Virus record (IMG/VR): IMGVR_UViG_3300009502_000053
Location: 1 to 61,400 of that record
Reading direction: 5' to 3' (one strand)
Source of the DNA: a virus
Lineage: Duplodnaviria; Caudoviricetes
Length of the DNA stretch: 61,400 nt
A program made the translations under genes and the position numbers. Below, in pieces: positions 1 to 51,039 of this stretch. Within the stretch, counting starts at the first letter, position 1. Each line of letters begins with the position of its first letter. The notes under the pieces are model-generated. The model was given only the letters and a program-made list of their open reading frames with translations. It ran no database searches and had not been told where the DNA came from.

Positions 1-204
1 ATATTTACTAATTTTAATAGTAGTGAATATTTACATAACACTAAGACATTTTCTTGTTCTAAGTTTAGCAAAACTAAATTTGAACCTTGGAAAGCAGCTT
101 TTAATTTCTCTTCTGCTAATAACTTTCAGTTAGGTACTAAACCTAAATTCTTAACAGATGATATGATGAAAAATCTTGAGAAATTAGCGAATTTTATAAA
201 ATAA
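1..204 (+). CDS. 3' end of a hypothetical protein (partial, runs off window)
   Basis: Open frame from base 1 (IFTNFNSSEY...LANFIK) to TAA at 202-204, 3 nt before the next ATG. Confidence 0.7.
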   Translation: MFTNFNSSEYLHNTKTFSCSKFSKTKFEPWKAAFNFSSANNFQLGTKPKFLTDDMMKNLEKLANFIK

Positions 205-207
205 TTA

Positions 208-630
208 ATGATAATGAAAACTTATAAAGACTATGTATTTGAGGCTGTATCACATCCAGATTTTAATGATAAATTTGAAGATGTTTGTGATAAATTAGAT
301 GAATTCTGGAGTAGTTTGGATATTGCATTTGATAATTTAGAAGATTTTAATTCTAAAACTCCACAACAAAATACTCAACAAAATACTCAACAAAAACAAC
401 AGAAGCCAACAAATACTCCACCAGAAAAAATGAGAAATGGCTCTCTTATTGAATATAATTATGTAACTAATAGTGGTAAAACAGTTGTAGTAACAATTGA
501 TACTCCTGATAATGGAACTAATACAAATACAGCTCTTGTTAAGCCTGTATATCCACCTAATTCTAAGAAAATATATCCTGTAAAATGGTCTAGATTAACA
601 CCTTTAGCACCACAATTAAAAACAACTTAA
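208..630 (+). CDS. Hypothetical protein with capsid-targeting-like N-terminus (MKTYKDYVFE), Q/N/T-rich linker
   Basis: ORF; N-terminus resembles T4 internal protein CTS MKTYQEFIAE; CAACAAAATACT tandem repeat at ~364-387. Confidence 0.7.
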   Translation: MIMKTYKDYVFEAVSHPDFNDKFEDVCDKLDEFWSSLDIAFDNLEDFNSKTPQQNTQQNTQQKQQKPTNTPPEKMRNGSLIEYNYVTNSGKTVVVTIDTPDNGTNTNTALVKPVYPPNSKKIYPVKWSRLTPLAPQLKTT

Positions 631-633
631 ACT

Positions 634-1077
634 ATGAAACATCTAAGCAACTTTGAATTATTTTTAGAAGAGAACAATCCAAATACTCCACAAGGTTATT
701 TAAATTCTGTATCTGGAAAACCACCAGTTAATTCTACAATAAAACCTAATCCTAATACAACACAAAATCAAAAACAACAACCACCACAGACACCAACTGA
801 AGAAGTTGATGGAATTTTACAAAATACTGAGGAACAAAAACAAAAAATTCTTTTAAGAAAAGATGCTATTGAAAAAGGACTGTTAAATAATATTAATCAA
901 TTGGAACCACAAAACCAGAAAGATGTAAAAACCCAAGTTGCGGATTATAAAAAACAAGTTACAGAATTTGATAAAACCGTCCAACAAATTGGCAAGTTGA
1001 ATCAAACACTAAAGAAATCTAATATTCCAACTAGCCAACAACCAACTATTAATAACGCAAGACAAAAAAACTTTTAA
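634..1077 (+). CDS. Hypothetical protein, N-terminal MKHLSNFELFLEE tag, coiled-coil C-half
   Basis: ORF in operon, tag motif, Q/P-rich linker. Confidence 0.7.
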   Translation: MKHLSNFELFLEENNPNTPQGYLNSVSGKPPVNSTIKPNPNTTQNQKQQPPQTPTEEVDGILQNTEEQKQKILLRKDAIEKGLLNNINQLEPQNQKDVKTQVADYKKQVTEFDKTVQQIGKLNQTLKKSNIPTSQQPTINNARQKNF

Positions 1078-6474: not shown

Positions 6475-7686
6475 CTAAATTGTTTGCTTATAAAGATTAT
6501 ACTTTATAAGAACTTTAGATAAATCTAAAGGCTCGTTCATAGAAGCAAAGTGATTTCCGAACCATCTATCTAATATATTTATGGCTGAATTTAAGTCACG
6601 ATCTATAATTATGGTGTCTGACAACTGGACTTTCCTATCACCAAGATTTATTTTATCTTTGAATAGTTTTCCAGTTAAACAGTTAATTTGTGTCGTCCAT
6701 TTTTCATCAATTTTAGTTAAATTGATATTTTTTGCTTGACACTTATAAGAAAGGAATTGTAAAAACATATTTATATTAGAATTATGAAATGATTTCCTAA
6801 TACCTTTTTTATTTTCATTAATACCTTCAGTTGACATCAATTTTTTAACTGTTAGATCACCAACTACAATTGTATTGTAGTTCATATTCACTAATTTTTT
6901 ACTTTGAATATGTAAAGTTTGTTTTATTTGCTCATTCTTTTTATGATAACATTTATTTAACACTTTTTTTAATTGCTTATTCCTATTTGATCCTTTTGTG
7001 GTTTTACTTCGCTTGGTTTGTATTTTTGCAATTTGCTTTTGATAATAGTCATTAATTTTTTTAGATTTGTTTTTTAATATAATCATTTCACCTTTATTAT
7101 CTACTCCAGTTCCTAATTTACTTAAACCTAAATCTATGGCTAATACTTTTGTCTTAATGTTTATATTATCATTATATACTATTTTATCATTAATAATTAA
7201 ATCACATAACCATTTATTTCTAACAAATTTTATTCTTATTTCTTTTATATTTAGTTCGTCTAAATTTAAATTAGATTTATATTCAAATGAAATTTTATTT
7301 ACTATAATTATATTATTTTCTTTTATCATCCAACCTGATTGATTCCAAGTTAAAGAATGAAAATAATCATTTTCTATTTTTCTTGGTGGTCTTGCTGTTT
7401 TATCTTTTTTTATTAATCTAAAGAAGGATTGATATGATCCATATAATTCTGTTGCTATGGTTTGTATTGCTTTAGAATTTAATTTCTTCCAATCTGAATA
7501 AGTTTCTTTTAATTCAGGAAGCATATTATTTAAATCAAATTTATTAAATATAGTTTTTGTTTTATTGTATTTCTCTGTTTGAATTTCAATTAATTTATTC
7601 CAAATATCTTTACGAATATCAGATAATTTTTTTAATTCATTAATTTGATGTATATTTGGAAATAATCTAATTTTATATGTTTTCAC
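6475..7686 (-). CDS. tnpB: TnpB-family RNA-guided nuclease (IS200/IS605/IS607-type), no adjacent tnpA
   Basis: MKTYKIRLFP N-terminus, RuvC-I LAIDLG, RuvC-II IVVGDL, RuvC-III DRDLNSAINIL; zinc finger degenerate. Confidence 0.9.
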   Translation of the reverse strand: MKTYKIRLFPNIHQINELKKLSDIRKDIWNKLIEIQTEKYNKTKTIFNKFDLNNMLPELKETYSDWKKLNSKAIQTIATELYGSYQSFFRLIKKDKTARPPRKIENDYFHSLTWNQSGWMIKENNIIIVNKISFEYKSNLNLDELNIKEIRIKFVRNKWLCDLIINDKIVYNDNINIKTKVLAIDLGLSKLGTGVDNKGEMIILKNKSKKINDYYQKQIAKIQTKRSKTTKGSNRNKQLKKVLNKCYHKKNEQIKQTLHIQSKKLVNMNYNTIVVGDLTVKKLMSTEGINENKKGIRKSFHNSNINMFLQFLSYKCQAKNINLTKIDEKWTTQINCLTGKLFKDKINLGDRKVQLSDTIIIDRDLNSAINILDRWFGNHFASMNEPLDLSKVLIKYNLYKQTI

Positions 7687-8220: not shown

Positions 8221-9073
8221 AAGATTGATAATTTTTCTGTTATGTTTTCATTATATTTTATTATTAATAAGTTTATATTATTTTCCCTACAAAATTTTTC
8301 TTTTATATTAAATCTATTCTTATTTATGTTAAATTCGTTTATACCACCAAAATACTTGTTAGGTTCGTAATGCTGAATTCCGTTATATTCAACACATGTA
8401 TTATAATCTATTAAATAGAAATCAAATCTTAATTTTGCTTTATATTTACAATTTTCAAATGTTTTTTGAGGTTGAGTTTTAAATAATTTCTTATTTCTTT
8501 CTCACCCTTACTTTCATTACAAATAGGACAACCTGAATTTCTAAGATGATGATTTGCTTTTTGCTTAAAAATACCATGTTTTTTACATATAATTTTTACA
8601 TATCTTTTTGATCCAGTATAATTTACTAAACTATAATCATATAGATTATTATGAATGATTTTTGATTTTTCTATAAATTTTTCAGTTGTTGATTTTTTAC
8701 TTTCTTTGAAACATTTTATACAACCTTGGCCTTTCATATGAACATCTGGTCTTTGTTCAAAATCACCATGTGTTTTACAAGATATAATAACTTTAGTTTT
8801 ATTATCAACTATACTAACTTTATCATAATTATAAATGTTTTTATGAATTTTATTGGATCTTTCTATAAATTTTTCAGTTGTTAAAAGGCAACATTTTGGA
8901 CAACCACGACCTTGTGTATGTGAGTGAGCAAGTTGTTCAAATTCTCCGCAAGTAGGGCATATTATTTTGATGAATGTTCTAGTGTTTTTATACTCAACTA
9001 AACTATAATCATATTTATTATTATGTATATTTTTACATTTTTCAATAAACTCTTCATTGGTCAACTTCTTCAT
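8211..9073 (-). pseudogene. Frameshifted repeat-containing PD-(D/E)xK-like mobile endonuclease
   Basis: KYDYSLVEY/CxxHG repeats to ~8480; nuclease domain (QKTFENCK..RFDFYL..VEYNGIQH..FGG) continues in the -1 frame to TGA at 8211-8213. Confidence 0.8.
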
Positions 9074-10736: not shown

Positions 10737-10914
10737 ACTGGATAGAGATTTGATGGAATTTCATATAGTTATGAAAGATGTTTTTGGATCTTTTGATATT
10801 CTTAATGATATAGAATATGAAGATTTACCAGCAGTATATCAATTTGCTAAAATAATTTTGAATTATACAAAAATGACGGAAGCCTTAAAAGAATTAAAAA
10901 ATGTAGTTATTTAA
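10729..10914 (+). CDS. Hypothetical protein
   Basis: ATG at 10729 (MNKLDRDLMEF...) overlapping previous stop is more plausible than the track start at 10666. Confidence 0.65.
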   Translation: MNKLDRDLMEFHIVMKDVFGSFDILNDIEYEDLPAVYQFAKIILNYTKMTEALKELKNVVI

Positions 10915-11760
10915 AATAGGGTGTATCTTATTTATTTCTGTATATTTTATACGCAAAAGATTAATATTATTATTTTTTGCGTATAAATTTTTTAAATTGT
11001 CTTTTTTTATTGTTTCTTTATATTCTTTTTCTCCGCCAAAAAATTCAATAGGTTTAAAATGTTGTATTCCATCATATTCAATTAGTATGTTATATTTTGG
11101 TAAATAAAAATCATATCTTAATTTTATTTTATTTTTACAATTATCAAAACATTTTTGAGGTAAAAATTCTATATTTTTTTCTATAAAATATTTTTTTATT
11201 TTATTTTCACCTTCACTGAATCCAGAAAGTTCTGGTGGTGTTTTAAAATGATATCTTGGTAGTTGCTCGTAAGTTATATCATTATAAACTATTTTAATTT
11301 TAGTTAGTTTATTTACATATTTAGTTAATGAATAATCATATTTGTTTCCGTATAATTTTTTTGATTCTTCAATAAAATCTAATGTTGTTTTATTATTTAC
11401 TATTTTTTCAGGACAGCATCCTCTTAAATGCATATCTGGTGTTTGAGTGTAAATAGTATTATTAAAAATAATTTTTACTTTGGAATATCTATTTTTATAA
11501 CTTACTAGTGAATAATCATATCTGTCACCGTGAATTTTTTTAGAATTTATTATGAAAATTTCTGTGTTAGTTTTTAGTACCTTATTTTCTGGACAAAATC
11601 CAGATAAATGATATGATGGAACTTGATTGTATATTTCGTTATTGTATAATATCTGCACCTCTATCATACAATTTTTATAATCAACTAATGAATAGTCATA
11701 TTTATCACCATGAATCAATTTAGCTTTATCTATAAAATCTTTAGTTGTCAATCTTTTCAT
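10894..11760 (-). CDS. Repeat-containing PD-(D/E)xK-like mobile endonuclease
   Basis: Three HGDKYDYSLVxY repeats + GENKI..RYDFYLP..IEYDGIQH..FGG. Confidence 0.85.
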   Translation of the reverse strand: MKRLTTKDFIDKAKLIHGDKYDYSLVDYKNCMIEVQILYNNEIYNQVPSYHLSGFCPENKVLKTNTEIFIINSKKIHGDRYDYSLVSYKNRYSKVKIIFNNTIYTQTPDMHLRGCCPEKIVNNKTTLDFIEESKKLYGNKYDYSLTKYVNKLTKIKIVYNDITYEQLPRYHFKTPPELSGFSEGENKIKKYFIEKNIEFLPQKCFDNCKNKIKLRYDFYLPKYNILIEYDGIQHFKPIEFFGGEKEYKETIKKDNLKNLYAKNNNINLLRIKYTEINKIHPILNNYIF

Positions 11761-15802: not shown

Positions 15803-16936
15803 TTAATTAAGGCTTATTTTATTGATAAACTCTTTATAATCTTTATCTATTATAAAAATAAAATTATAACCGCTTTCTAATGATGCCTTCTTTTTAGCTT
15901 CATTTTTTTCAATATCGTAATTGTAAGTATAACTACTTTTAACTTCAACTATTAAGTTAAATTGTTTAATATAAAAATCTGGATGATATCTTCTATTTTT
16001 ATTATCAAAATCGTATATTATTGATTTTGGTTTTTCAATCAGTATTTTATCATAAAAAGTTTCAAGGAAATTTAATTCATATGTTCCACGATAAAATAAA
16101 TTTTTATATTTTTTTAATTTGAATGCTGATATTTGTTGCTTTTCATGAATATTCACATTTTGTGATGAATATTCAACTCCATATTTTTTTAAGCATGTGC
16201 TTTTACTTTTTTCTAAAATTTCATTTTTTTCTTCTGTTGTTCTGTTTAAACTATTTCTTTTCATTTTATTTCTAAATTTATTGGTTTTAGCATAACTATC
16301 AACACCGTATCTTTTTATTGATGTTTTCCGACTCTTATCTATTGATTTTGGATTTTGTAAAGCGTGCTTATAACCTGTTCTTTCTAGCAATGTATTTTGT
16401 AGTTTTTCTACAGATTTTGGATTTTGCATTACATTTTCAACTCCATAATTTTTTAAAAAAACTTCTTTACATCTTGTCTTATATTCATCTGTTTTTGAAT
16501 AATGTGTTTCTCCATATCTTTTTAATGATGTTTCTTTACTTTTTTTAACACATTTTTTTGTTTTACAATATCTATCAACTTTATATTTTTTCAGGCAGGT
16601 TTTTTCAGATTTTTCTTTAAATTCATCTGTTTCTGTAAAACTTTTTTTACCATATTTTTTCCTACAAGTTTCTTCGTTTTTTAGTGGTATACATTTACTA
16701 CAACAGAATTTATTATTTGATCTTATGCTATAATTATATTCTTTGTAAAATAATTCTTTAATATCACCACAATAATCACATTTTGCGGTTATTGTTTCAT
16801 GACTACCTTTTGGTAATAGTGATATATCAATTTCAATTTCATCACCAAATTTAATATTATTATATCCATTGTCTTTAAAATGCTTGATGTGAAACCCGCT
16901 ATTTACTTTTATTTTAATTTTATCTGTTAACAACAT
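15803..16936 (-). CDS. KYGVx-repeat PD-(D/E)xK-like mobile endonuclease
   Basis: CDYC zinc motif, repeated (K/R)YG(V/E) units, YHPDFY..IVEVKS. Confidence 0.85.
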   Translation of the reverse strand: MLLTDKIKIKVNSGFHIKHFKDNGYNNIKFGDEIEIDISLLPKGSHETITAKCDYCGDIKELFYKEYNYSIRSNNKFCCSKCIPLKNEETCRKKYGKKSFTETDEFKEKSEKTCLKKYKVDRYCKTKKCVKKSKETSLKRYGETHYSKTDEYKTRCKEVFLKNYGVENVMQNPKSVEKLQNTLLERTGYKHALQNPKSIDKSRKTSIKRYGVDSYAKTNKFRNKMKRNSLNRTTEEKNEILEKSKSTCLKKYGVEYSSQNVNIHEKQQISAFKLKKYKNLFYRGTYELNFLETFYDKILIEKPKSIIYDFDNKNRRYHPDFYIKQFNLIVEVKSSYTYNYDIEKNEAKKKASLESGYNFIFIIDKDYKEFINKISLN

Positions 16937-25261: not shown

Positions 25262-26134
25262 ATGTTGATAACAAAAGAAGTAGATATTTTTAATAAGAAA
25301 ATTAGTATTGAGAATTTGTCAAAAAATAGTCACAAATATATTGATGTAAAATGTGATAATTGTGGTAAAGAAAAGAAAGTAAAATACCAATCATATAATA
25401 ATATGACAAAAAATAATACAACAGATTATTATTGTAATAACAAAGATTGTATAAATAAGAAAAGAAATATAGTAATTAAAGAAAAATATGGAGTTGATAA
25501 TGTTTTTCAATTGGAAAAGGTTAAAGATAAGATTAAAGAGACTAATTTAGAATTATATGGGGTGGAAAATCCACATCAGAATGAGAAAATAAAACTTAAA
25601 GCAGAAAATACTAATTTGGAAAGATACGGTGTTAAGAACCCATTTCAATCGGAAGTTATAAAAGAAAAAATGAAAAAAACTAATCTTAAAAATATAGGTT
25701 ATGAATATCCATCACAATCTGATATTATTAAAGAAAAAATGTGTGAGACATCTTTGAAAAATTATGGATTTAGATATCCAGTTCAAAACAAAGATTTTTT
25801 CAATAAAAATCTTAAAAATGGATTTAAATTGACGTATATAGATGAATTGTCTTGTCAAGGTTCATATGAAGTGGATTTTGTGTTAAAATATAAGGATAAA
25901 GTAAAAATAGAGAATGGTTTATCTATTGAATATTATTTTTTAGATGAAAAAAAGATATATCATTCTGATTATTATATACCTGAGTATGATTTAGTTATTG
26001 AAGTTAAATCAATATATTGGTATGAAGTGCATAAAGATCAATGTGATGCAAAAGAAGAATATACTAAAAAATTACATAATTATATTATGATATTAGATAA
26101 GAATTATGATGATTTTGAAAAAATAATTTGTTAG
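25262..26134 (+). CDS. KYGVxN-repeat PD-(D/E)xK-like mobile endonuclease
   Basis: CDNC, YGV(D/E/K)N(V/P)(F/H)Q repeats, YHSDYY..VIEVKS. Confidence 0.85.
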   Translation: MLITKEVDIFNKKISIENLSKNSHKYIDVKCDNCGKEKKVKYQSYNNMTKNNTTDYYCNNKDCINKKRNIVIKEKYGVDNVFQLEKVKDKIKETNLELYGVENPHQNEKIKLKAENTNLERYGVKNPFQSEVIKEKMKKTNLKNIGYEYPSQSDIIKEKMCETSLKNYGFRYPVQNKDFFNKNLKNGFKLTYIDELSCQGSYEVDFVLKYKDKVKIENGLSIEYYFLDEKKIYHSDYYIPEYDLVIEVKSIYWYEVHKDQCDAKEEYTKKLHNYIMILDKNYDDFEKIIC

Positions 26135-31078: not shown

Positions 31079-32170
31079 TTATTGATTATAGATTTTTTCA
31101 ATAGATTTGTTTTTTAAATAATCAATAAGAATATCTTCAACATTTTCATCATATTTTATTCTTAATAGATTAATATTATTATCTTCACAATATTTATTTT
31201 TAATATTATCTTTTATTTTTTGCTTTTCTAATTCAGAGTCCCCGCCCCAATGTTTTGCAGAAATAAAATGTTGTTCACCATCATATTCAATACAAATATT
31301 TAGATCAATAAGATAAAAATCAAAATGTAATAGTCTTTCATATTTACAATTTTCAAAGTTGTGTTGCCTAGTATAGTTTATTTTATTGTTTTTTAAAAAC
31401 ATTCTTATTTTCTTTTCACCGTAAGATTCTTTACATATTGGACAACCTTTTCCTCTTTTGTGATTATCAGGAGTTTGCTCAAACATACCATGAATTGGGC
31501 AAATAATTTTAACTTTATCACGAGCACCATTATAATCTACTAATGAATAATCATATTTATCTCCGTGTACTTTTTTTGCTTTGTTAATAAACTCTTTATT
31601 TGATGATTTTGATTTTTCCTTTGAACATTTTGGACAATTACAATTTAGATGAATTACAGGTTTTTGTTTAAAAATACCATGTTTTTTGCATATTATTTTA
31701 ACTGGTGTTATACTATCTTTATAATCAACTAAAGAATAATCATATTTATTACCGTGCTTTTCTTTTGAATTTTTTATAAATTCGTTGGTGGTTGAGCATT
31801 TTCCACATTTCTGGCAACCACAACCATTCAAATGACAATTAGGTTCTTGATAAAATGCACCATGTATATTACAAATAATTTTAATTTTAATTCTATTATG
31901 TTTATAATCAACAAGAGAATAATCATATTTATCACCGTGTATTTTTTTTGCTTTTTCTACAAATTTATCAGTGTTTGAACCCCTACATTTAGAGCAACCT
32001 TTGTTACTTAAATGTGCATTTGGTGATTGCTCAAATTCTCCGTGTTTAGAACATATGATTTTTACTTTTTTGCTAGATTTTTGATAACAAACTAACGAGT
32101 AGTCATATTTATCTCCGTGAACTTTTTTTGCTTTTTCTATAAAATTTTTAGTATTAGATTGCCAGCTCAT
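31079..32170 (-). CDS. Repeat-containing PD-(D/E)xK-like mobile endonuclease
   Basis: Four HG(D/N)KYDYSLV/CxxHG repeats + FDFYL..IEYDGEQH..WGG. Confidence 0.85.
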   Translation of the reverse strand: MSWQSNTKNFIEKAKKVHGDKYDYSLVCYQKSSKKVKIICSKHGEFEQSPNAHLSNKGCSKCRGSNTDKFVEKAKKIHGDKYDYSLVDYKHNRIKIKIICNIHGAFYQEPNCHLNGCGCQKCGKCSTTNEFIKNSKEKHGNKYDYSLVDYKDSITPVKIICKKHGIFKQKPVIHLNCNCPKCSKEKSKSSNKEFINKAKKVHGDKYDYSLVDYNGARDKVKIICPIHGMFEQTPDNHKRGKGCPICKESYGEKKIRMFLKNNKINYTRQHNFENCKYERLLHFDFYLIDLNICIEYDGEQHFISAKHWGGDSELEKQKIKDNIKNKYCEDNNINLLRIKYDENVEDILIDYLKNKSIEKIYNQ

Positions 32171-32346
32171 AAGATAATTTTCTTATTTTTTAATTCTTCT
32201 CTGAATTCTGAATCTTTACAGAGTTCTTCAATAGCACAATATTCTAAGAATTTTGATCTATTACCTACTGTATCATTTATTATTTTTAGTATATCAGGAT
32301 CTAATGATATAGAGAATGTGACTTTTTTATTTTTCTTTGTTTTCAT
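32167..32346 (-). CDS. Small ribbon-helix-helix protein (not in ORF track)
   Basis: MKTKKNKKVTFSISLDPDILKIINDTVGNRSKFLEYCAIEEL..., ATGA overlap with endonuclease. Confidence 0.75.
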   Translation of the reverse strand: MKTKKNKKVTFSISLDPDILKIINDTVGNRSKFLEYCAIEELCKDSEFREELKNKKIIL

Positions 32347-32477
32347 GATTAATCTTTATTTTATAGTATATATAAATATTTTAAAGTCAAAACTTAACAA
32401 TTTTCTATTATTTTTACATTATAAATATGTTATACAACATATTAAACTTTAATAGAAAATATACTATAAATTGTGAT

Positions 32478-32639
32478 ATGAGAAAAACAAAACCAGACGA
32501 ATTAAAGAGAAAGACAATATCTGTTTCAATAGATCCAAGAGTATATGAAATGTGGGTTAAGTATTGTGAGAAGTATGAGATAGAGAACTATTCAGAGTAT
32601 TTTGAAAAGATAATTGTGGATAAATTGAAGGATAAATAA
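32478..32639 (+). CDS. Small ribbon-helix-helix protein, divergent
   Basis: MRKTKPDELKRKTISVSIDPRVYEMW...NYSEYFEKII. Confidence 0.7.
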   Translation: MRKTKPDELKRKTISVSIDPRVYEMWVKYCEKYEIENYSEYFEKIIVDKLKDK

Positions 32640-32666
32640 AAAAAGAGCCTGAATTTCAGGCTCTTC
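32635..32666 (-). terminator. Intrinsic terminator closing the minus-strand RNA
   Basis: Minus strand AAGAGCCTG-AAATT-CAGGCTCTT followed by U-tract. Confidence 0.85.
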
Positions 32667-32880
32667 AACTTTCTATGTTGGTGTGCTGTTACGCCAAAGA
32701 CATTCTTGTACTTTTTTGGTGAGAATATGTTGATACCATAGCCCAACACCGCTCTATTTACCACAGACTACATCAAAAGATACTATTACCATATCTAACA
32801 TTTTGCGATTGTGTAGAGTTTAAGTCACTCATTATAAGATGGCTGCTTCCAAGCCAACTTCCCAACAGTCTTTGAAAGTT
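32667..32880 (-). ncRNA. Structured RNA mimicking the 23S rRNA GTPase-associated centre (H42-H44) with ~130-nt insertion
   Basis: Minus strand AACUUUC-AAAGAC-UGUUGG-GAAGUUGGCUUGGAAGCAGCCAUC-UUAUAAUGAG...GCGUAACAGC-ACA-CCAACA-UA-GAAAGUU; H43 and H44 loops match 23S, closing stems pair with non-rRNA sequence. Confidence 0.75.
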
Positions 32881-33120
32881 TTATAAAAATAAATCTGGAT
32901 TATTTTTCAGATTTTCTAATTTTTCTTTACGATCTTTTCTTAAGAAATATTTGTTTGTATCAAGAAAGAATCTGCAAGATTTATCTTCACTTACCATTTC
33001 ATTGAAATATGGACTATTTTCATGCCTACAAGTAGTATTATCAGAGCCAGTCATATCATTTATCATGATATTAATATCTGAATACTCTGAAAACATACAA
33101 TATAAGCAATTATCTTTCAT
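32881..33120 (-). CDS. Small Cys-containing protein with RxxKLxxL motif
   Basis: CLYC..C..C; DRKEKLENLK. Confidence 0.7.
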   Translation of the reverse strand: MKDNCLYCMFSEYSDINIMINDMTGSDNTTCRHENSPYFNEMVSEDKSCRFFLDTNKYFLRKDRKEKLENLKNNPDLFL

Positions 33121-33881
33121 CTAAATCTCCTTTCTTTTTCCATTCTTTTTAATGTTTGAAATGGTGTTTCATTTTTTTTCATTTCATAAGAACAACCAGT
33201 ACAACCACCCTTATATGAGTTCTTCCTTTCTCCAATATCTGTACTGAATTCAATTTCAATACATTTATGAATTTTTCTTGTCCATTTTAGCCATTTAAAC
33301 CATTTCCATCGCCATTCTCTTTCTTCAACTCTAATAGTTGCCAGGCAATGTTGTGCTTCACCACCATTTGTGATATAAAGATAAGGATATGTTTCAGAAA
33401 ATAAAATTCCATACCATTTATCTTTATCCCAAAAATTTCTATTTTTATATTTTTTTGTGTCGTGTTCCCAGGTTCCATCGATTTTTAATGCTGATGTTCT
33501 AATCCAATCAAGTGTCCAAGGAAGATCATATAATTTAGTATTTTTTCCATAGTTAATACCAAACTGATTCATATAGAAATATACACCATATTGTGGTGGA
33601 TCGCATTCATCATATGTTTCTTTCTTATATACTTTTTTCTCTATTTTTTTACCTGAGATGGAATTTAGTTTATCTTTCCTTTTTTCTTTTAGAGTCTTTT
33701 CTCTTTCAACTTTTTTATAATGAACCCAAGGCATATATAGAAAGAGTTTACCCCAGATAAAATATATTTGAAGAACTGGCTTTGTGTCATAGTATCCTGA
33801 TAGTTGATATCTAAATTGAAAACCACTCCAATCAGGAGTAAAATCAAACCATTTGGTTCTATATGTCTTTTTTTCTTTCAT
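33117..33881 (-). CDS. Hypothetical Trp-rich protein
   Basis: EEREWRWKW..GERKNSYKGGCTGCSYEM; internal RKDKLNSI. Confidence 0.8.
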   Translation of the reverse strand: MKEKKTYRTKWFDFTPDWSGFQFRYQLSGYYDTKPVLQIYFIWGKLFLYMPWVHYKKVEREKTLKEKRKDKLNSISGKKIEKKVYKKETYDECDPPQYGVYFYMNQFGINYGKNTKLYDLPWTLDWIRTSALKIDGTWEHDTKKYKNRNFWDKDKWYGILFSETYPYLYITNGGEAQHCLATIRVEEREWRWKWFKWLKWTRKIHKCIEIEFSTDIGERKNSYKGGCTGCSYEMKKNETPFQTLKRMEKERRFR

Positions 33882-47759: not shown

Positions 47760-48007
47760 TGTACGGCAAGAAATATAATAAATATAGATTAGAAGAATTA
47801 GGTATTACTGTTTTAGAAGATGAAGATGATATTTGGAATCCATCATTAATAATTGAAAGTTCTGATGGAAGTTTTATGAGATATAATATTCATAATAATG
47901 TCGTTATTGATGAGTCTTTAGTTGATATTGCTATTGATAGATTTATAGTTCAACTTAGAAGAGAAAAAATACAAAAACTTAATGAGCAATTTAATAGAAC
48001 ATGCTAA
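47756..48007 (+). CDS. Hypothetical protein with C-terminal RxxKIxKL
   Basis: LRREKIQKLNE. Confidence 0.7.
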   Translation: MMYGKKYNKYRLEELGITVLEDEDDIWNPSLIIESSDGSFMRYNIHNNVVIDESLVDIAIDRFIVQLRREKIQKLNEQFNRTC

Positions 48008-48581
48008 AAGAGAATTTTTAAAATTAGGTTATAAACCTATTGAAGAATGTGAAAATGATCCAGATAAATGGATTCAAGAAAATGTATTAGAACTATTAGG
48101 AGTTTTTTCAAAACAAGGTCATTCTGGAAGTTCAGCACCGTACGTAATAAATATGTTCAAGAAATTGGCAAACTTTGATCCAATAGCACCTATAATGTGT
48201 ACTGATGATGAATGGAATAATGTTGGTGACGACACATTTCAAAATAATAGATGTTCAGCAGTTTTTAAAAAAGGAAAGGACGGTAAACCATATTATATAG
48301 ATGCAATAATATGGAGAAATCAAAATGGTTCTGGCTATACTGGTTCATCATTCAATTCAAAAAAAGAAAGAATACTTAGCAGACAATATATAAAAATACC
48401 ATTTCAACCAAAATCTTTTTATATAGATAGAATTGATTATGAAATTGCACCAGATGATTGGGAATCATATATTAAAGATGAATCTCAATTAAAAGAAGTT
48501 TGGGAATATTATGAGCATCAAGAAACCTTATCTTACGTGAGATTAAAAAAATTAAAAGCTATTAATGAAGTTCAAGCTTAA
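47982..48581 (+). CDS. Conserved phage hypothetical protein (QGHSGSS) with C-terminal RxxKL
   Basis: FSKQGHSGSSA..DDEW..QNNRCSAVFK; ends VRLKKLKAINEVQA. Confidence 0.8.
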   Translation: MSNLIEHAKREFLKLGYKPIEECENDPDKWIQENVLELLGVFSKQGHSGSSAPYVINMFKKLANFDPIAPIMCTDDEWNNVGDDTFQNNRCSAVFKKGKDGKPYYIDAIIWRNQNGSGYTGSSFNSKKERILSRQYIKIPFQPKSFYIDRIDYEIAPDDWESYIKDESQLKEVWEYYEHQETLSYVRLKKLKAINEVQA

Positions 48582-50124
48582 TCAAGATAACACAAAGCTT
48601 ATTTTAACAGAATCAACAAAAGGTGAATATAATCAATTAAAGTTATATCTGACTCGAAAGGTGCACAATTACCGTTTCATGAAGAGATTTAAGCTTGGTG
48701 TGTGGAATGGTGATATTTCTTACTTTTCAGACGGTATAATCAATTTTGGTTTATGGCAGGAGGTATATCAATGCTGTAAACAATATGGATATCCTTTTAT
48801 TATAGAGAATAAAGAACAATTTCCAAGAAATAATGCTATAACAAGAGATCAAGTACAAGAATTTGTAAATGAATTTTACAAAGATCATAAAACACCAGAT
48901 GGTAAAAATTTTATACCATATGAGCATCAAGTAGACGCTATATTTCAATTATTAAAGTATCAATATGGATTGGTTGAAATTGCAACTGCTGGTGGAAAAT
49001 CCTTGGTTTTCGGCACATTATTGTTTTATTATTTAACTCATATTGATCCTACTTCAAAATTCTTATTAATAGTGCCTAGCATCAGTTTGGTCACACAATT
49101 TTATAATGACTTAGGAGATTATAATTATGGATTTTTAAGTGATAATAAGTCACCTTTAGACATTAGAATTGATGAGGTGATGAGTGATAAACCTAGAAAA
49201 TATAGAGAAGAAGAGAAAAAACCTAATATATACATTGGAACATATCAATCACTTGAAAAATATCCTCGTGAATGGTTTCGACAATTTACTGTAGTGGCTT
49301 GTGATGAGGCTCATACTGCAAAAGCAAATACACTTATTGAAATTTTAACTAAAACATTTGGTAGTGCTAAAATTAGATTTGGTATGAGTGGTTCTTATCC
49401 TTCTGATAGTTCAGTAGAAATATTAACTATTCAATCACTTTTAGGACCAAAATTAATTAATATAAGTGCCAAGAAATTAATAGATAAAGGTCTAATATCT
49501 GATCTAAAGGTTAAAGCAGTACTTCTTCATCATGAGAATCATAAATTTGCAGAAGGAGTTTATAATATTAAGAAGAGGGGTGATGGTAAAGCTGCATATG
49601 ATCTGGAGAGGGAATATATTCATAATTCTGTTAAGAGAAAAGTATTTATTAAAAATCTGGTGGACAAATTTAAACAGAACTCATTAATATTGTTTCACAC
49701 AATTGTTTATGGTACAGAACTATACAATTATATAAAAGATAATTGTGTTGGTAAAGATGCTTATTATATTGATGGCTCAACATCAACAGAGAAGAGAGAA
49801 TATATAAAAAAACAGATGGAGATCACGTCTGGAAATCCAAAAATTTTGATTGCTAGTTTTGGAGTATTTTCAACTGGTGTTAGCGTAAAAGCAATTACAA
49901 ATATTGTATTCGCTGATTCTTTTAAAGAGCCTAAAATAATTCGCCAGGCAATTGGTAGAGGATTAAGGTTGCACGCAGAAAAGACTAAACTTATAGTGTT
50001 TGATATAGTTGATGTGTTTCATGCAGATTTTAAAACAATTTTATGGAACCAATACGAATCACGTAAATCAGAAGTATATAAGAAACAACAATATCCACTA
50101 GATGAATTAAAGGTTAAATTATGA
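48565..50124 (+). CDS. uvsW: UvsW-like SF2 DNA helicase
   Basis: WNGDI N-domain, ATAGGKS, DEAH, GMSGS, FSTGVS, QAIGRGLR. Confidence 0.9.
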   Translation: MKFKLNQDNTKLILTESTKGEYNQLKLYLTRKVHNYRFMKRFKLGVWNGDISYFSDGIINFGLWQEVYQCCKQYGYPFIIENKEQFPRNNAITRDQVQEFVNEFYKDHKTPDGKNFIPYEHQVDAIFQLLKYQYGLVEIATAGGKSLVFGTLLFYYLTHIDPTSKFLLIVPSISLVTQFYNDLGDYNYGFLSDNKSPLDIRIDEVMSDKPRKYREEEKKPNIYIGTYQSLEKYPREWFRQFTVVACDEAHTAKANTLIEILTKTFGSAKIRFGMSGSYPSDSSVEILTIQSLLGPKLINISAKKLIDKGLISDLKVKAVLLHHENHKFAEGVYNIKKRGDGKAAYDLEREYIHNSVKRKVFIKNLVDKFKQNSLILFHTIVYGTELYNYIKDNCVGKDAYYIDGSTSTEKREYIKKQMEITSGNPKILIASFGVFSTGVSVKAITNIVFADSFKEPKIIRQAIGRGLRLHAEKTKLIVFDIVDVFHADFKTILWNQYESRKSEVYKKQQYPLDELKVKL

Positions 50125-51039
50125 GTATTTTATTCTTATAAATTTGCAATTTAAATGTTTTTCAATTTCATTTTGCCTAATTATATCTTTTTCTTTTAAA
50201 ATACCTTTCTTGAAATGATGTTTTTCATCATACTCATATACAGTATTGTTTAATTCATCATAACCATCTAACCAATATCCAAGTTCTTTGATATAATACT
50301 CTCCTCCATTCATTGCGTGCCGAATAGTTATGTTATTTTCTTTACTTATTTCATCAAAAATTTCACATGCTTTTTTATTATAACTTGGTGTCATTTGATA
50401 GCCATTAAATTTATCTTTATTGATTCGTTCTATTGTTTTTAATCTAACTTTCAAACTCATTATTTTAATAGCGCAAGATTGACAATTGCCTCCATCTTTA
50501 TGCTTTGATGGTGATATAAAAAAACTACCGTGTTCTGGACAAATCACTTCACTTTTAGAGGTTGAATGCTTAAAAATAAATTTTGAATAATCATATTTGT
50601 TATTATGTCTTTTTGATAAAATTTCTATCCATTCTTCTGTATTATTATTTTTTCCTGAGCATTTAGGACATCCATGTGGTAGAGAATGTTCTATTAGACT
50701 TTGATTAAACTCTCCATGAATTGGACAAATAATAATAACTTTTTTTGACAAATTAATAAAGTTCACCTTAGAGTAATCATATTTATTATTATGCATCTTT
50801 TTTGATTTTTCTAAATATTTTTTTAATGTTTCTGACTTTATTTTTTCCTTATTACATTCTTTGCAACCATTTTTTCTTGATAATATTTTATTTGGTGTTA
50901 TTAAGAATGAACCATGAGTTTTACAAATAATCTCAATAGGTGTGTGATTATTAATATAATTTACTTTAGATAAATCAAAATTATCATCAAATATTTTTTT
51001 TATTTCTTCTATAAACTCTTCTGTTGTTTTCGCTCTCAT
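50119..51039 (-). CDS. Repeat-containing mobile endonuclease
   Basis: KYDYSK/CPxHG repeats + GYWLDGYD..VYEYDEKHH. Confidence 0.8.
   Translation of the reverse strand: MRAKTTEEFIEEIKKIFDDNFDLSKVNYINNHTPIEIICKTHGSFLITPNKILSRKNGCKECNKEKIKSETLKKYLEKSKKMHNNKYDYSKVNFINLSKKVIIICPIHGEFNQSLIEHSLPHGCPKCSGKNNNTEEWIEILSKRHNNKYDYSKFIFKHSTSKSEVICPEHGSFFISPSKHKDGGNCQSCAIKIMSLKVRLKTIERINKDKFNGYQMTPSYNKKACEIFDEISKENNITIRHAMNGGEYYIKELGYWLDGYDELNNTVYEYDEKHHFKKGILKEKDIIRQNEIEKHLNCKFIRIKYS

Follow-up and report, generated by a model that had tools for sequence, protein, structure and literature searches.

A phage RNA family that copies the GTPase-associated centre of 23S rRNA, possibly as a trans-acting decoy

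The GTPase-associated centre (GAC) of bacterial 23S rRNA (E. coli 1051-1108) is the site at which uL11 and thiostrepton bind. Imitation of rRNA binding sites outside the ribosome is known from the autoregulatory mRNA leaders of ribosomal proteins, for example the L10 leader, which are cellular, act in cis upstream of ribosomal-protein genes and resemble their models loosely. Isolated laboratory copies of the GAC and of the sarcin-ricin loop (SRL) also exist apart from the ribosome and are reportedly associated with the work of Munishkin and Wool in 1997. Phages in turn encode non-coding RNAs that copy parts of the host translation machinery, such as tRNAs that counter tRNA-cleaving defences; the PARIS defence is described as being neutralised by a phage tRNA (PMC11464382). 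The GAC can itself come under attack, as the bacterial toxin Tre23 is reported to ADP-ribosylate the H44 bases 1095-1098 and to cripple the GTPase activity of EF-G (PMC8661411).

Here we describe a phage RNA that copies the GAC and differs from each of these systems. It lies in a stretch of 61,400 nucleotides (the window; positions 1 to 61,400 of the IMG/VR virus record IMGVR_UViG_3300009502_000053) from a very large lake-water phage, which encodes phage helicases, homing endonucleases, ThyA, Acb3 and Tad3. Read from the sequence, the minus strand from 32880 to 32667 forms a self-closed copy of 23S rRNA 1051-1108, limited by the stop codon of ORF79 (32881-32883) on one side and by a terminator on the other. 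Its parts and immediate neighbours are as follows.

32667..32880, minus strand: whole RNA element, 214 nt (about 215), from the 5' arm to the 3' arm of the outer stem
32874..32880, minus strand: 5' arm of the outer stem, AACUUUC, partner of 32667-32673
32868..32873, minus strand: 5' side of an asymmetric internal loop, AAAGAC, facing UA at 32674-32675
32862..32867, minus strand: 5' strand of the closing helix, UGUUGG, equivalent of the top of H42 (1050-1055)
32836..32861, minus strand: H43 mimic (1056-1081) with the 1067 loop and G at 1067, from the local Rfam LSU match and the E. coli comparison
32827..32835, minus strand: junction AUAAU (1082-1086) and GAGU (1087-1090, 5' strand of H44), from the E. 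coli comparison
32695..32826, minus strand: inserted domain between 1090 and 1091, 132 nt, ending in the UUUG linker of the family
32682..32694, minus strand: 3' part of the H44 mimic (1091-1103), GCGUAACAGCACA, containing the 1095 loop and, at 1101, the A typical of the family
32676..32681, minus strand: 3' strand of the closing helix, CCAACA, equivalent of 1104-1109
32667..32673, minus strand: 3' arm of the outer stem, GAAAGUU, partner of AACUUUC at 32880..32874
32632..32666 (hairpin 32666..32642), minus strand: intrinsic terminator with an 11-bp stem, a 3-nt loop and a T-run
32881..33120, minus strand: ORF79, encoding a small protein that is rich in Cys and has a basic tail; its stop codon adjoins the RNA
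33117..33881, minus strand: Acb3-family gene (CBASS inhibitor; Pfam PF25187, E 1.8e-43)

Every string that an earlier sequence-only reading had quoted, among them the outer stem and UGUUGG/CCAACA, is present on the minus strand, and the strong terminator that it placed directly after the element is there as well; a 1-kb scan found this one terminator against 0.2 expected, and the convergent ORF70 is also ended by it. The internal loop given as AGAC exists, although it is in fact asymmetric, with AAAGAC opposite UA. In the alignment with the close relative L273 this loop reads UUUGAU/UA, so that GA and UA are kept; a kink-turn was considered for it as a candidate only. From 5' to 3' the strands follow in the order H43-like hairpin, AUAAUGAGU, 132-nt insert and GCGUAACAGC-ACA, and the closing helix forms six of six pairs. 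The 1067-loop core GGCUU(A/G)GAAGCAGCC, part of the test for family membership, is exact in the H43-like hairpin, while the H44 stretch reads UCUUUGGCGUAACAGCACACC and fits the family pattern GYGUAAYAGC plus ACAC (which holds A1101), with UUUG before it. The insert contains a hairpin AGAUAU-GGUAAUA-GUAUCU and a second one, UGUUG...CAACA. A 58-aa open reading frame overlapping the element (32588..32764, minus strand) was rejected as coding, because indels of 7 nt and 1 nt separate the window from L273.

Comparison with the annotated E. coli 23S gene, with which the sequence given in the earlier reading agrees, shows 42 of 58 core bases to be identical. Thirteen of the 16 differences fall in seven base pairs, every one of which is still paired; six of the seven differ in both bases, among them the tertiary pair 1082-1086, which is swapped to A-U in the window, and the pairs of the closing helix are among those altered on both strands. 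The phage RNA thus shares with the bacterial GAC its secondary structure, the invariant loop cores, the tertiary pair and the junction adenines. It differs in being free-standing, with a closing helix of its own instead of H42, and in its insert between 1090 and 1091, its A1101, its UUUG linker and its G1067. Folding of a 246-nt stretch yields -63.2 kcal/mol versus -51.8 +/- 4.6 in shuffles (z -2.47), with 2 of 200 shuffles as good. Rfam 15 at the gathering threshold gives no match in the whole window, ribosomal-protein leaders, group I introns, sRNAs and LSU models included, and the E-value mode returns weak matches only (best non-rRNA E 0.31). The two split LSU hits that had been predicted came down to a single one, the H43 half alone scoring: model LSU_rRNA_archaea 1182-1231 matches 32862..32813 on the minus strand with 18.7 bits (E 0.0017 in a 451-nt search).

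The near-identity of the H43 and H44 loops to real 23S could indicate a captured and decaying fragment of host rRNA or an assembly chimera, a reading to which we assign next to no probability and which is refuted as far as sequence evidence goes. The element is closed on itself by a helix unlike H42 in sequence, its differences are compensatory, and it carries A1101, UUUG and an insert that are specific to a family with hundreds of phage copies. Real 23S loci have no insert, a U at 1101, a continuing H42 stem and a sarcin-ricin loop some 1.4-1.8 kb downstream, features that the element does not share; it is flanked by the stop codon of a protein gene and a terminator. A chimera with host rRNA, which the earlier reading had named as a possible refutation, was looked for and not seen: a 561-nt contig from an independent lake-water DNA run is identical over 32417-32977 and spans both flanking ORFs, which excludes a chimeric assembly with host rRNA. 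The element is not an rRNA scrap; it is almost certainly a real structured RNA gene of a phage family of GAC mimics.

The window RNA is one member of a very large family of phage RNAs, which we collected by two exact 18-mer scans of IMG/VR. The earlier reading knew of no described family, and none matching was found in Rfam 15 or in full-text literature searches. The family comprises at least 146 IMG/VR loci and has a phage-specific split architecture: among the matches listed, an insert interrupts 124 of 147 viral sites as compared with 1 of 120 bacterial-genome sites, 103 of the latter being ordinary contiguous 23S. Insert length ranges from 0 to 445 nt with a median of 133, close to the 132 nt of the window. 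In 100 distinct members, A1101 is present in 94, where real 23S has U, and the linker, UUUG in the window, has the frequencies U90 U96 U89 G84. Members also occur unannotated in several cultured phages, among them Pseudomonas phage pf16, Aeromonas phage 4_4572, Serratia phage BF and Cronobacter phage GAP32.

That selection acts on the structure, as the earlier reading had proposed, is borne out by covariation against E. coli, across about 100 distinct members and against L273. For 70 distinct elements picked by the H44 signature only, which removes the selection bias towards closed helices, the closing helix is paired at 4.61 of 5 positions in register versus 1.5-2.4 when slid. The 61 distinct 5' closing strands pair with their own partners at 4.83 of 5 positions, as compared with 2.78 of 5 for permuted partners. 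Within the 100 members, which were found with exact 18-mers and in part chosen on helix closure, the base of H43 (1058/1080) covaries (UA 35, GC 33, AU 22, CG 6), as does the tertiary pair 1082/1086 (UA 44, CG 29, AU 4). Outside the search patterns, near-invariant positions are U1060 (100 of 100), A1084 (97), A1085 (92) and A1088 (90); the conservation of 1062-1079 is given by construction, since members were found with exact 18-mers. A1085 is described as forming a junction A-minor triple with G1055=C1104 (PMC1919483). Other positions are freer: 1067 is A in 79 and G in 21 of 100 distinct elements, the window having G, and the 1095 loop, GUAACA in the window, is altered to GUGACA, GUAGAA, GUCAUA or GUAUCA in some members.

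Many family loci are part of a tRNA array and share the strand of its tRNAs (14 of 20 and 42 of 60 in two locus sets), and the remaining 6 and 18 have no tRNA in the flanks examined. The 61.4-kb window, from a record estimated to be 9% complete, contains no tRNA, so this copy lacks the typical array setting. In comparison with ribosomal-protein leaders, which likewise copy an rRNA protein-binding site off the ribosome, the phage RNA is a near-exact copy located at an operon end or among tRNAs; no ribosomal-protein gene was found near it.

A long-insert subfamily, with inserts of 300-450 nt, adds a hairpin AGUAC-NNNN-GGAA with a sarcin-ricin core, present in at least six distinct members, while two further variants end in GGAG. 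All six pairs of its stem show changes in both partners, and 95.2% of the stem cells are paired versus 58.4% in shuffles. A blastn-short comparison in which every insert of 60 nt or more was set against 14 real 23S loci returned three rows: the member L017 matches real 23S at the sarcin-ricin loop over 16 of 16 bases, and a 15/15 match of L216 (E 0.018) was treated as chance. Rfam did not report the L017 hairpin at E up to 5. By their sequence, the long forms would rebuild both halves of the factor-binding site on a single RNA. As compared with the isolated laboratory copies, which contain the same two rRNA elements, the phage RNAs are a natural, selected gene family, in which the window has the GAC part only and few long forms have both.

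Such forms bring up the possibility that the RNA together with uL11 presents a docking surface for GTPases or the tRNA elbow, and so serves as a trap or platform for translation factors or A-site tRNA. An isolated SRL oligonucleotide is reported to bind EF-G and IF2 (PMC3496166), the elbow of the A/R tRNA is described as stacking on A1067 while its acceptor stem touches the SRL (PMC5829649), and the frequent same-strand tRNA arrays would suit this reading as well. We nevertheless consider it improbable. A phage needs the factors of its host, and adjacency to tRNAs may only reflect shared transcription and processing. The sarcin-ricin-like hairpin occurs, by pattern search and among the matches listed, at just 7 of 147 viral sites, and it is absent from the 132-nt insert of the window. 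The AGUACAAGAAUG stretch, taken up there as a candidate sarcin-ricin motif, is lost in L273, and two 2-mismatch matches elsewhere in the window, both outside the RNA, are at chance level (0.47 expected).

What is new about this copy is its location: it is found not among tRNAs but in a variable island, where it follows an Acb3 gene and a small ORF rich in Cys. Acb3, described as a CD-NTase inhibitor (bioRxiv 10.1101/2025.07.23.666291), heads an apparent operon Acb3-ORF79-RNA, and a homologue of the anti-Thoeris protein Tad3 is encoded 15 kb from the RNA. For ORF79, ORF70 and ORF111, a Pfam search extended to E 1 assigned no family, save for one match at E 0.076. In L273, whose Acb3 homologue is 54% identical, an ORF79 homologue likewise adjoins the RNA, but the same cassette is inverted, with the RNA reversed relative to Acb3-ORF77, so that co-transcription with Acb3 is not conserved. 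Among the Acb3 relatives the RNA is confined to the window and L273: in L275 (Acb3 56% identical) a helicase directly follows Acb3 and there is no RNA, and L276 is also without the mimic. Functional coupling to Acb3 was rejected, as tblastn of Acb3, ORF79 and ORF70 on the family loci matched L273 only; the Acb3 link is weak.

The same surroundings could be taken to mean that the RNA has no function in trans and is instead a cis element of the ORF79 operon, that is, a 3'-end stabiliser or processing signal, or else the RNA of a small mobile cassette. It lies at the 3' end of the operon beside the terminator, and the 7-nt outer stem is also the inverted-repeat boundary of the cassette, its 5' arm AACUUUC being unchanged in the relatives L273 and L012. 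The island of about 2 kb holds an HNH endonuclease and is missing from L275, the cassette is turned round in L273, and one relative has a TnpB gene placed within the insert domain. Even so, this reading is very improbable in our view, given that neither a stabiliser nor the RNA of a mobile element would need to preserve the GAC fold as far as its tertiary pair and that most family members are found among tRNAs rather than at operon ends. The elements of L273 and L012, moreover, carry a TATATTTG box of their own upstream and face away from ORF77. This box presumably corresponds to the Bacteroidota -7 consensus.

Comparison with L273 also informs on the insert, which is 82% identical and whose predicted consensus structure has two compensatory, four one-sided and no broken pairs; the closing helix shows a compensatory change from G-C to A-U. 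The stems that the earlier reading had seen in the insert exist as complementary strings, but in L273, the sole relative that is both close and full-length, compensatory change is confined to AGAUAU/GUAUCU. The GUAAUA of that hairpin, considered as a second 1095-type loop, is kept in L273 and L012 and is no family trait; in the inserts at large, GUAAYA was found 12 times versus 9.5 expected, and in closed hairpins twice versus 0.3.

With respect to expression, the number of sigma-70-like sites in the region does not exceed background (9 versus 7.0 +/- 2.7 in shuffles), and no TAnnTTTG box was seen in the 250 nt upstream of the window RNA. The RNA would most simply be made by read-through of the Acb3-ORF79 operon, with the terminator setting its end. 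The locus is present in public lake DNA runs. In the public runs searched, no RNA-run contig covers the element, the sole mapping RNA-library contig (157 nt, 32427-32583) belonging to ORF70 only; deep cover of 32810-32877 in run X20 was rejected as expression and represents rRNA of other organisms, as it consists of 38-nt pieces with three to five differences.

We propose that the ends of the RNA fold as a self-closed GAC (tip of H42, H43 and H44) with the 132-nt domain grafted into H44, and that the molecule takes on the GAC tertiary fold and acts in trans, off the ribosome. Host uL11 would bind to it and give a free stalk base. The partner should be the uL11 of the host, since the carrier phages encode none: the uL11 domain PF00298 was found in 0 of 39 mimic-bearing phage records (controls 14 of 14), 18 of which are at least 90% complete. 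Judged from the conserved fold, the RNA probably acts in trans as a uL11-bound mimic. The free stalk base would then compete with ribosomes for whatever recognises the GAC site, preferably a host defence or stress factor at the factor-binding centre, such as a toxin that modifies or cleaves rRNA or a factor that docks there. That its purpose is counter-defence is a tentative suggestion, and the explanation as a whole, an off-ribosome GAC mimic that works with host uL11 as a counter-defence decoy, is one that we prefer while holding it to be somewhat short of probable.

Phage tRNAs that neutralise PARIS offer a parallel, being encoded in the same arrays as the GAC-mimic RNAs. A tRNA can take the place of one that has been damaged, whereas an rRNA domain, which cannot be built into a ribosome, would be limited to binding or competition. 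Tre23 and other rRNA-directed toxins are possible targets rather than relatives; the H44 loop 1095-1098 that they are described as recognising (PMC8661411) is kept as GUAACA in the window. Their link to the phage RNA is conjectural, and none of them is known to act in phage defence or in the host. The variation at 1067 and in the 1095 loop speaks against a decoy and is awkward if these are the bases that the factor reads. Against a toxin that acts catalytically, moreover, a stoichiometric decoy would achieve little, except as a bound inhibitor. We know of no GAC-aimed defence system in the likely host group.

This variation would be easier to reconcile with a sponge that takes up free host uL11, so that new or exchanging ribosomes lack it and RelA activation and the stringent response are blunted, or translation is retuned for the phage. 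Conservation concerns the fold that binds uL11 and not the bases that contact factors, phage-encoded uL11 is missing, and the GAC with A1067 is described as part of the RelA/A-site tRNA complex (PMC5829649). The RelA_SpoT domain, which would point to alarmone traffic, was however found in 0 of the 39 carrier phages, and we regard such a sponge as unlikely. A sponge for thiopeptide antibiotics of the thiostrepton class, held with uL11 in the H43/H44 cleft, is hardly credible: thiopeptides are reported to bind exactly the GAC site (PMC8661411, PMC5829649), but A1067 is described as the crucial determinant of thiostrepton resistance (PMC5829649) and the window has G. No ecological link is apparent, and a phage would presumably gain little from guarding its host against an antibiotic within one infection cycle.

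To return to the decoy, we speculate that phages may encode a ribosome in pieces, in which a free GAC, with the sarcin-ricin loop in the long forms, joins host uL11 to make a decoy stalk base, which would capture or disarm proteins directed at this site, for instance defence toxins, the stringent factor or translational GTPases. If true, this would be the first trans-acting rRNA-domain mimic in virus-host conflict and would bring a novel class of viral non-coding RNA, in which a functional centre of the ribosome is copied as a separate gene and kept by selection. Phage tRNA arrays would then be broader toolkits of imitation translation parts, and the stalk base (uL11, H43/H44) would be a battleground between phages and bacteria, which predicts unknown host factors or toxins that read the site. 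Structural biology would gain a set of GAC variants made by nature, some with an insert and some without, differing in the base at 1067 (A or G) and in some cases extended by a sarcin-ricin loop. The members in several cultured phages make the question directly testable.

A minor observation concerns the G at 1067, which the earlier reading had taken to match Bacteroidota 23S. In real 23S genes, G does occur there in several lineages of Bacteroidota and in many phyla besides. In a phylum sample the 18-mer matched in 4 of 201 genomes, three with A and one with G at 1067, the latter being the query genome itself.

The 214-nt RNA element (32880..32667, minus strand) fills the gap between ORF79 (33120..32881), a small ORF, and a convergent 70-codon ORF, and all strings quoted in the sequence-only reading are present on that strand. 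Its parts follow one another from 5' to 3'.

Parts of the RNA element and its terminator (minus strand)
Outer stem, 7 bp: AACUUUC/GAAAGUU
Asymmetric internal loop inside the outer stem: AAAGAC opposite UA
Closing helix, 6 bp: UGUUGG/CCAACA
H43-like hairpin, next after the 5' strand of the closing helix
AUAAU and GAGU, next after the H43-like hairpin
Insert, 132 nt, after GAGU; 3' end UUUG
GCGUAACAGCACA, directly after the insert, before the returning strands of the stems
32666..32642: terminator, 11 pairs, directly 3' of the RNA

The terminator, already described as strong and as following the RNA directly, is the sole one in a 1-kb scan (0.2 expected), and the element folds more stably than its shuffled versions (z -2.47). 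The E. coli 23S reference was the gene from the annotated chromosome, whose annotated start places A1067 and C1049 at the literature numbering. Without its insert, the core is identical to E. coli 1051-1108 at 42 of 58 positions. Thirteen of the 16 differences sit in seven base pairs, all still paired, and six of these pairs differ on both sides (1052/1107, 1053/1106, 1054/1105, 1058/1080, 1082/1086 and 1090/1101); the remaining three are A1067G, A1089G and U1097C. A 58-codon mechanical ORF overlaps the RNA, but indels of 7 nt and 1 nt within it separate the window from its close relative L273, and it is therefore not a gene.

At the gathering threshold Rfam holds no family for the window RNA. 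In E-value mode the H43 half gives a local LSU rRNA match (18.7 bits, E 0.0017), so that of the two split LSU matches that had been expected one half alone appeared. The earlier statement that no family had been described agrees with our search of Rfam 15 and of a selection of the full-text literature, in which no description of an RNA mimicking the GTPase-associated centre (GAC) was found. In the parts bearing on this subject, a study of ribosomal proteins encoded by viruses deals with bL12, and uL11 appears there only as part of the stalk (PMC6375957). We rate the GAC-mimic family as falling outside every described kind of RNA found, with a putative function.

Exact scans of IMG/VR with the H43-loop 18-mer as it stands in the window (G at 1067) and with its A-at-1067 version gave 28 and at least 118 loci, respectively. 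Among the matches listed, all 147 sites in the 146 loci from both scans were classified: 124 are split by an insert, four have a contiguous H44 and are minimal, self-closed forms (e.g. L010, L025 and L163), and 19 have no H44-like motif in the available flank, comprising three coding coincidences (L008, L011, L188), incomplete flanks and loop variants. In bacterial and archaeal genome contigs the G 18-mer gave, among the matches listed, 120 sites in 120 loci, of which one is split, 103 are contiguous and of the ordinary 23S type, and 16 lack an H44-like motif in the available flank. Real 23S genes carry U at 1101, have no insert or one extra base, and, in flanks long enough to include it, show the sarcin-ricin loop (SRL) about 1.4-1.8 kb downstream. 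It is thus viral contigs that have the split architecture, and sequence comparison places the element in a very large phage RNA family. In the 100 distinct elements with both halves the insert measures 0-445 nt (median 133), a UUUG linker stands directly before G1091, base 1067 is A in 79 elements and G in the other 21, and 94 carry A1101. One site in a bacterial contig (L098, Paenibacillus roseus) is flanked as in ordinary 23S and its H44 is uninterrupted; its H43 base and junction, CAUCUUAUAAUGA, are identical to the window's, and no downstream SRL match was found there at up to one mismatch.

Membership in the 100-element set had required at least 4/5 closing pairs, and the closing-helix test was therefore repeated unfiltered on 70 distinct elements picked solely by the first downstream H44 signature. 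In these, 4.61/5 pairs form in register, against 1.5-2.4 with the partner strand slid by 1-3; all five form in 54 elements, four in 11 and fewer in five, apparently through register shifts. The 5' closing strand occurs in 61 different sequences, which pair 4.83/5 with their own partners and 2.78/5 with permuted ones. Within the 100 elements, pair 1051/1108 is AU in 33, UA in 30, CG in 17 and GC in 16; pair 1058/1080 is UA in 35, GC in 33, AU in 22 and CG in six; and the tertiary pair 1082/1086 is UA in 44, CG in 29 and AU, as in the window, in four. Conservation at 1062-1079 and in most of the H44 loop is built in by the search patterns; outside them U1060 (100 of 100), A1084 (97), A1085 (92) and A1088 (90) are near-fixed. 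A tertiary contact joins U1060 to A1088. The junction A-minor triple of the rRNA domain is G1055=C1104/A1085 (PMC1919483), and pair 1055/1104 is paired in all 100 elements, as G-C or A-U in 97. Taken together, the alignments show an RNA fold under selection, a copy of the uL11-binding domain; selection on structure had been proposed from the one sequence, and homologs with covariation now bear this out. A scrap of rRNA is an unlikely reading beside such pairing.

Members from looser searches vary: L273 and Serratia phage BF are altered at 1070, and in some members the H44 loop is GUGACA, GUAGAA, GUCAUA or GUAUCA. Variability at 1067 and in some 1095 loops fits a titration of uL11 by the RNA, our second-ranked reading at a low probability; it is weakened because starved complexes activate RelA almost as well when A1067 is changed (PMC5829649). 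That the RNA is a thiopeptide sponge or a cis-element is unlikely.

Six distinct members with inserts of 311-445 nt (L005 and its duplicate L018, L007, L017, L021, L024 and L187) have, some 220-340 nt from the start of the insert, a covarying hairpin with the sarcin-ricin-loop core, AGUAC-NNNN-GGAA. The pattern occurs seven times in 15.7 kb of inserts and once in 45.8 kb of controls. All six stem pairs are altered on both sides in the alignment, whose cells are paired in 95.2% of cases versus 58.4% when shuffled and at most 57% when slid, and 16 of 16 bases of the L017 hairpin are identical to a real Flavobacteriales 23S. Variants with a GGAG end occur in L204 and L216, and Infernal aligns the start of the L017 insert as a degenerate first H44, which hints at duplication. 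A single long-form RNA then copies the factor-binding site of the ribosome in both its halves; the window's insert has no sarcin-ricin-like hairpin. A trap for translation factors or tRNA fits such forms and also the reports that the tRNA elbow touches A1067 (PMC5829649) and that SRL oligonucleotides bind EF-G/IF2 (PMC3496166). The phage, however, needs those factors, and we hold a trap to be more doubtful still than uL11 titration.

The window spans an entire virus record of IMG/VR, for which CheckV estimates 9% completeness, and is therefore a fragment of a very large phage. Its G+C content is 25.8%, no tRNA genes were found in it, and besides helicases and ThyA it encodes the following.

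Anti-defence, TnpB and endonuclease genes of the window
33117-33881, minus: Acb3 homologue, CBASS inhibitor (PF25187, E 1.8e-43)
47982-48581, plus: Tad3 homologue, type I Thoeris inhibitor (PF25185, E 4.3e-37)
6475-7686, minus: one TnpB (OrfB_IS605)
8429-9073, 10894-11760, 15803-16936, 25262-26134, 31079-32170 and 50119-51039: six HNH or homing endonucleases

Public DNA runs of freshwater origin, lakes included, contain the stretch, and a 561-nt contig from a separate study is identical to 32417-32977, spanning both flanks of the RNA. The locus is real phage DNA rather than a chimera with host rRNA, which the sequence-only reading had named among its refuting outcomes. A 157-nt RNA-library contig with one difference covers 32427-32583 (plus), which is ORF70, a small gene running towards the RNA; the rest of the 1-kb stretch is not covered.

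In metagenome contigs, a scan with a 23-mer found four loci. L273 (23% G+C) carries a counterpart of the RNA at 82% identity, and of 57 predicted consensus pairs 51 are unchanged, two compensatory (in the closing helix and in the insert hairpin AGAUAU/GUAUCU, one each), four one-sided and none broken, a two-sequence comparison that supports the insert fold thinly. The L273 RNA (2338-2557) is inverted relative to the window's 32667-32880: its 3' end abuts the stop codon of ORF77, the homologue of ORF79, whose stop codon in the window abuts the 5' end. Orientation switches exactly at the 7-nt terminal inverted repeat AACTTTC...GAAAGTT, which is the outer stem. In both L273 and a further relative, L012 (IMG/VR), TATATTTG stands 12 nt upstream of the RNA and agrees with the -7 promoter box of Bacteroidota. 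No such box is present in the window, so the RNA there would arise by read-through. In L012 the 5' half is present and the alignment is lost after the conserved hairpin loop GGUAAUA; AT-rich DNA and a TnpB/IS605-type ORF follow (about 1-990, minus strand, at the contig start) and look like an insertion into the extra domain; no 3' half is reached within the contig.

The minus-strand order in the window is Acb3 homologue, ORF79, RNA and terminator. Acb3 is reported to inhibit CBASS CD-NTases (bioRxiv 10.1101/2025.07.23.666291). The L273 counterparts of Acb3 and ORF79 are 54% and 43% identical. In L275, whose Acb3 is 56% identical, a helicase gene follows Acb3 directly, with neither ORF79 nor RNA, whereas in the window about 2 kb with ORF79, the RNA, ORF70, ORF111 and an HNH endonuclease lie between the two genes (31079-33120 versus L275 2501-4896); the RNA therefore belongs to an island that varies among relatives. 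That it lies near an anti-defence gene is suggestive, but the linkage is not conserved. Elsewhere, members of the family stand in tRNA arrays: a tRNA at the Rfam threshold lies within 1.5 kb of the mimic in 14 of 20 loci, and in 42 of 60 loci a tRNA lies within 0.9 kb. By eye, they are on the mimic's strand in all 42 tRNA-bearing loci, and a tRNA ends within about 10 nt of the closing helix in about 16 of 60.

Among deposited phages, blastn found unannotated, intergenic members; full elements were read in Aeromonas phage 4_4572 (mimic, then tRNA-Met) and Serratia phage BF, all others being H43-half matches: six Erwinia pEa_SNUABM phages and Kaldavass, Xanthomonas phages XbC2 and XacN1, Pseudomonas phages pf16, UNO-G1W1, Milchi and Astolliot, Ralstonia phage RSP15, a Vibrio phage, Paenibacillus phage Pd_22F, Cronobacter phage GAP32 and Pectobacterium phage CBB. 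Small "phage" records among the matches are plain 23S rRNA.

A uL11 gene was found in none of 39 mimic-bearing records, which include 18 with a completeness of 90% or more (controls 14/14). Host uL11 may bind the mimic RNA, which would then offer a free stalk base. Among functional readings we tentatively rank first a counter-defence decoy, a possibility short of an even chance, because a toxin that acts on the GAC has been proven, Tre23 ADP-ribosylating H44 at 1095-1098 (PMC8661411); because copies of translation RNAs in phage arrays are known to serve in counter-defence, as with phage tRNA against PARIS (PMC11464382); because the long forms add the SRL, the other toxin and factor target; and because the island that holds the window copy adjoins anti-defence genes.

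Phage tRNA arrays that contain mimics also have sub-threshold matches to YrlA (Y RNA-like; 30.9-41.4 bits, gathering threshold 69) at L003 1620-1744, L016 683-801 and L020 2607-2732. Beside mimics, ARAGORN reports CUA-anticodon, amber-reading tRNAs labelled tRNA-Pyl (L172 1116-1202, L198 480-568) and tmRNA genes (L186 1240-1507, L216 107-477). The stop codons of 86 mechanically chosen window ORFs are TAG in three, TAA in 53 and TGA in 30. Another locus, L195, carries two tandem GAC mimics (901-918 and 1219-1236, plus), the first with an unusual junction, and a tRNA-Pro gene between them.
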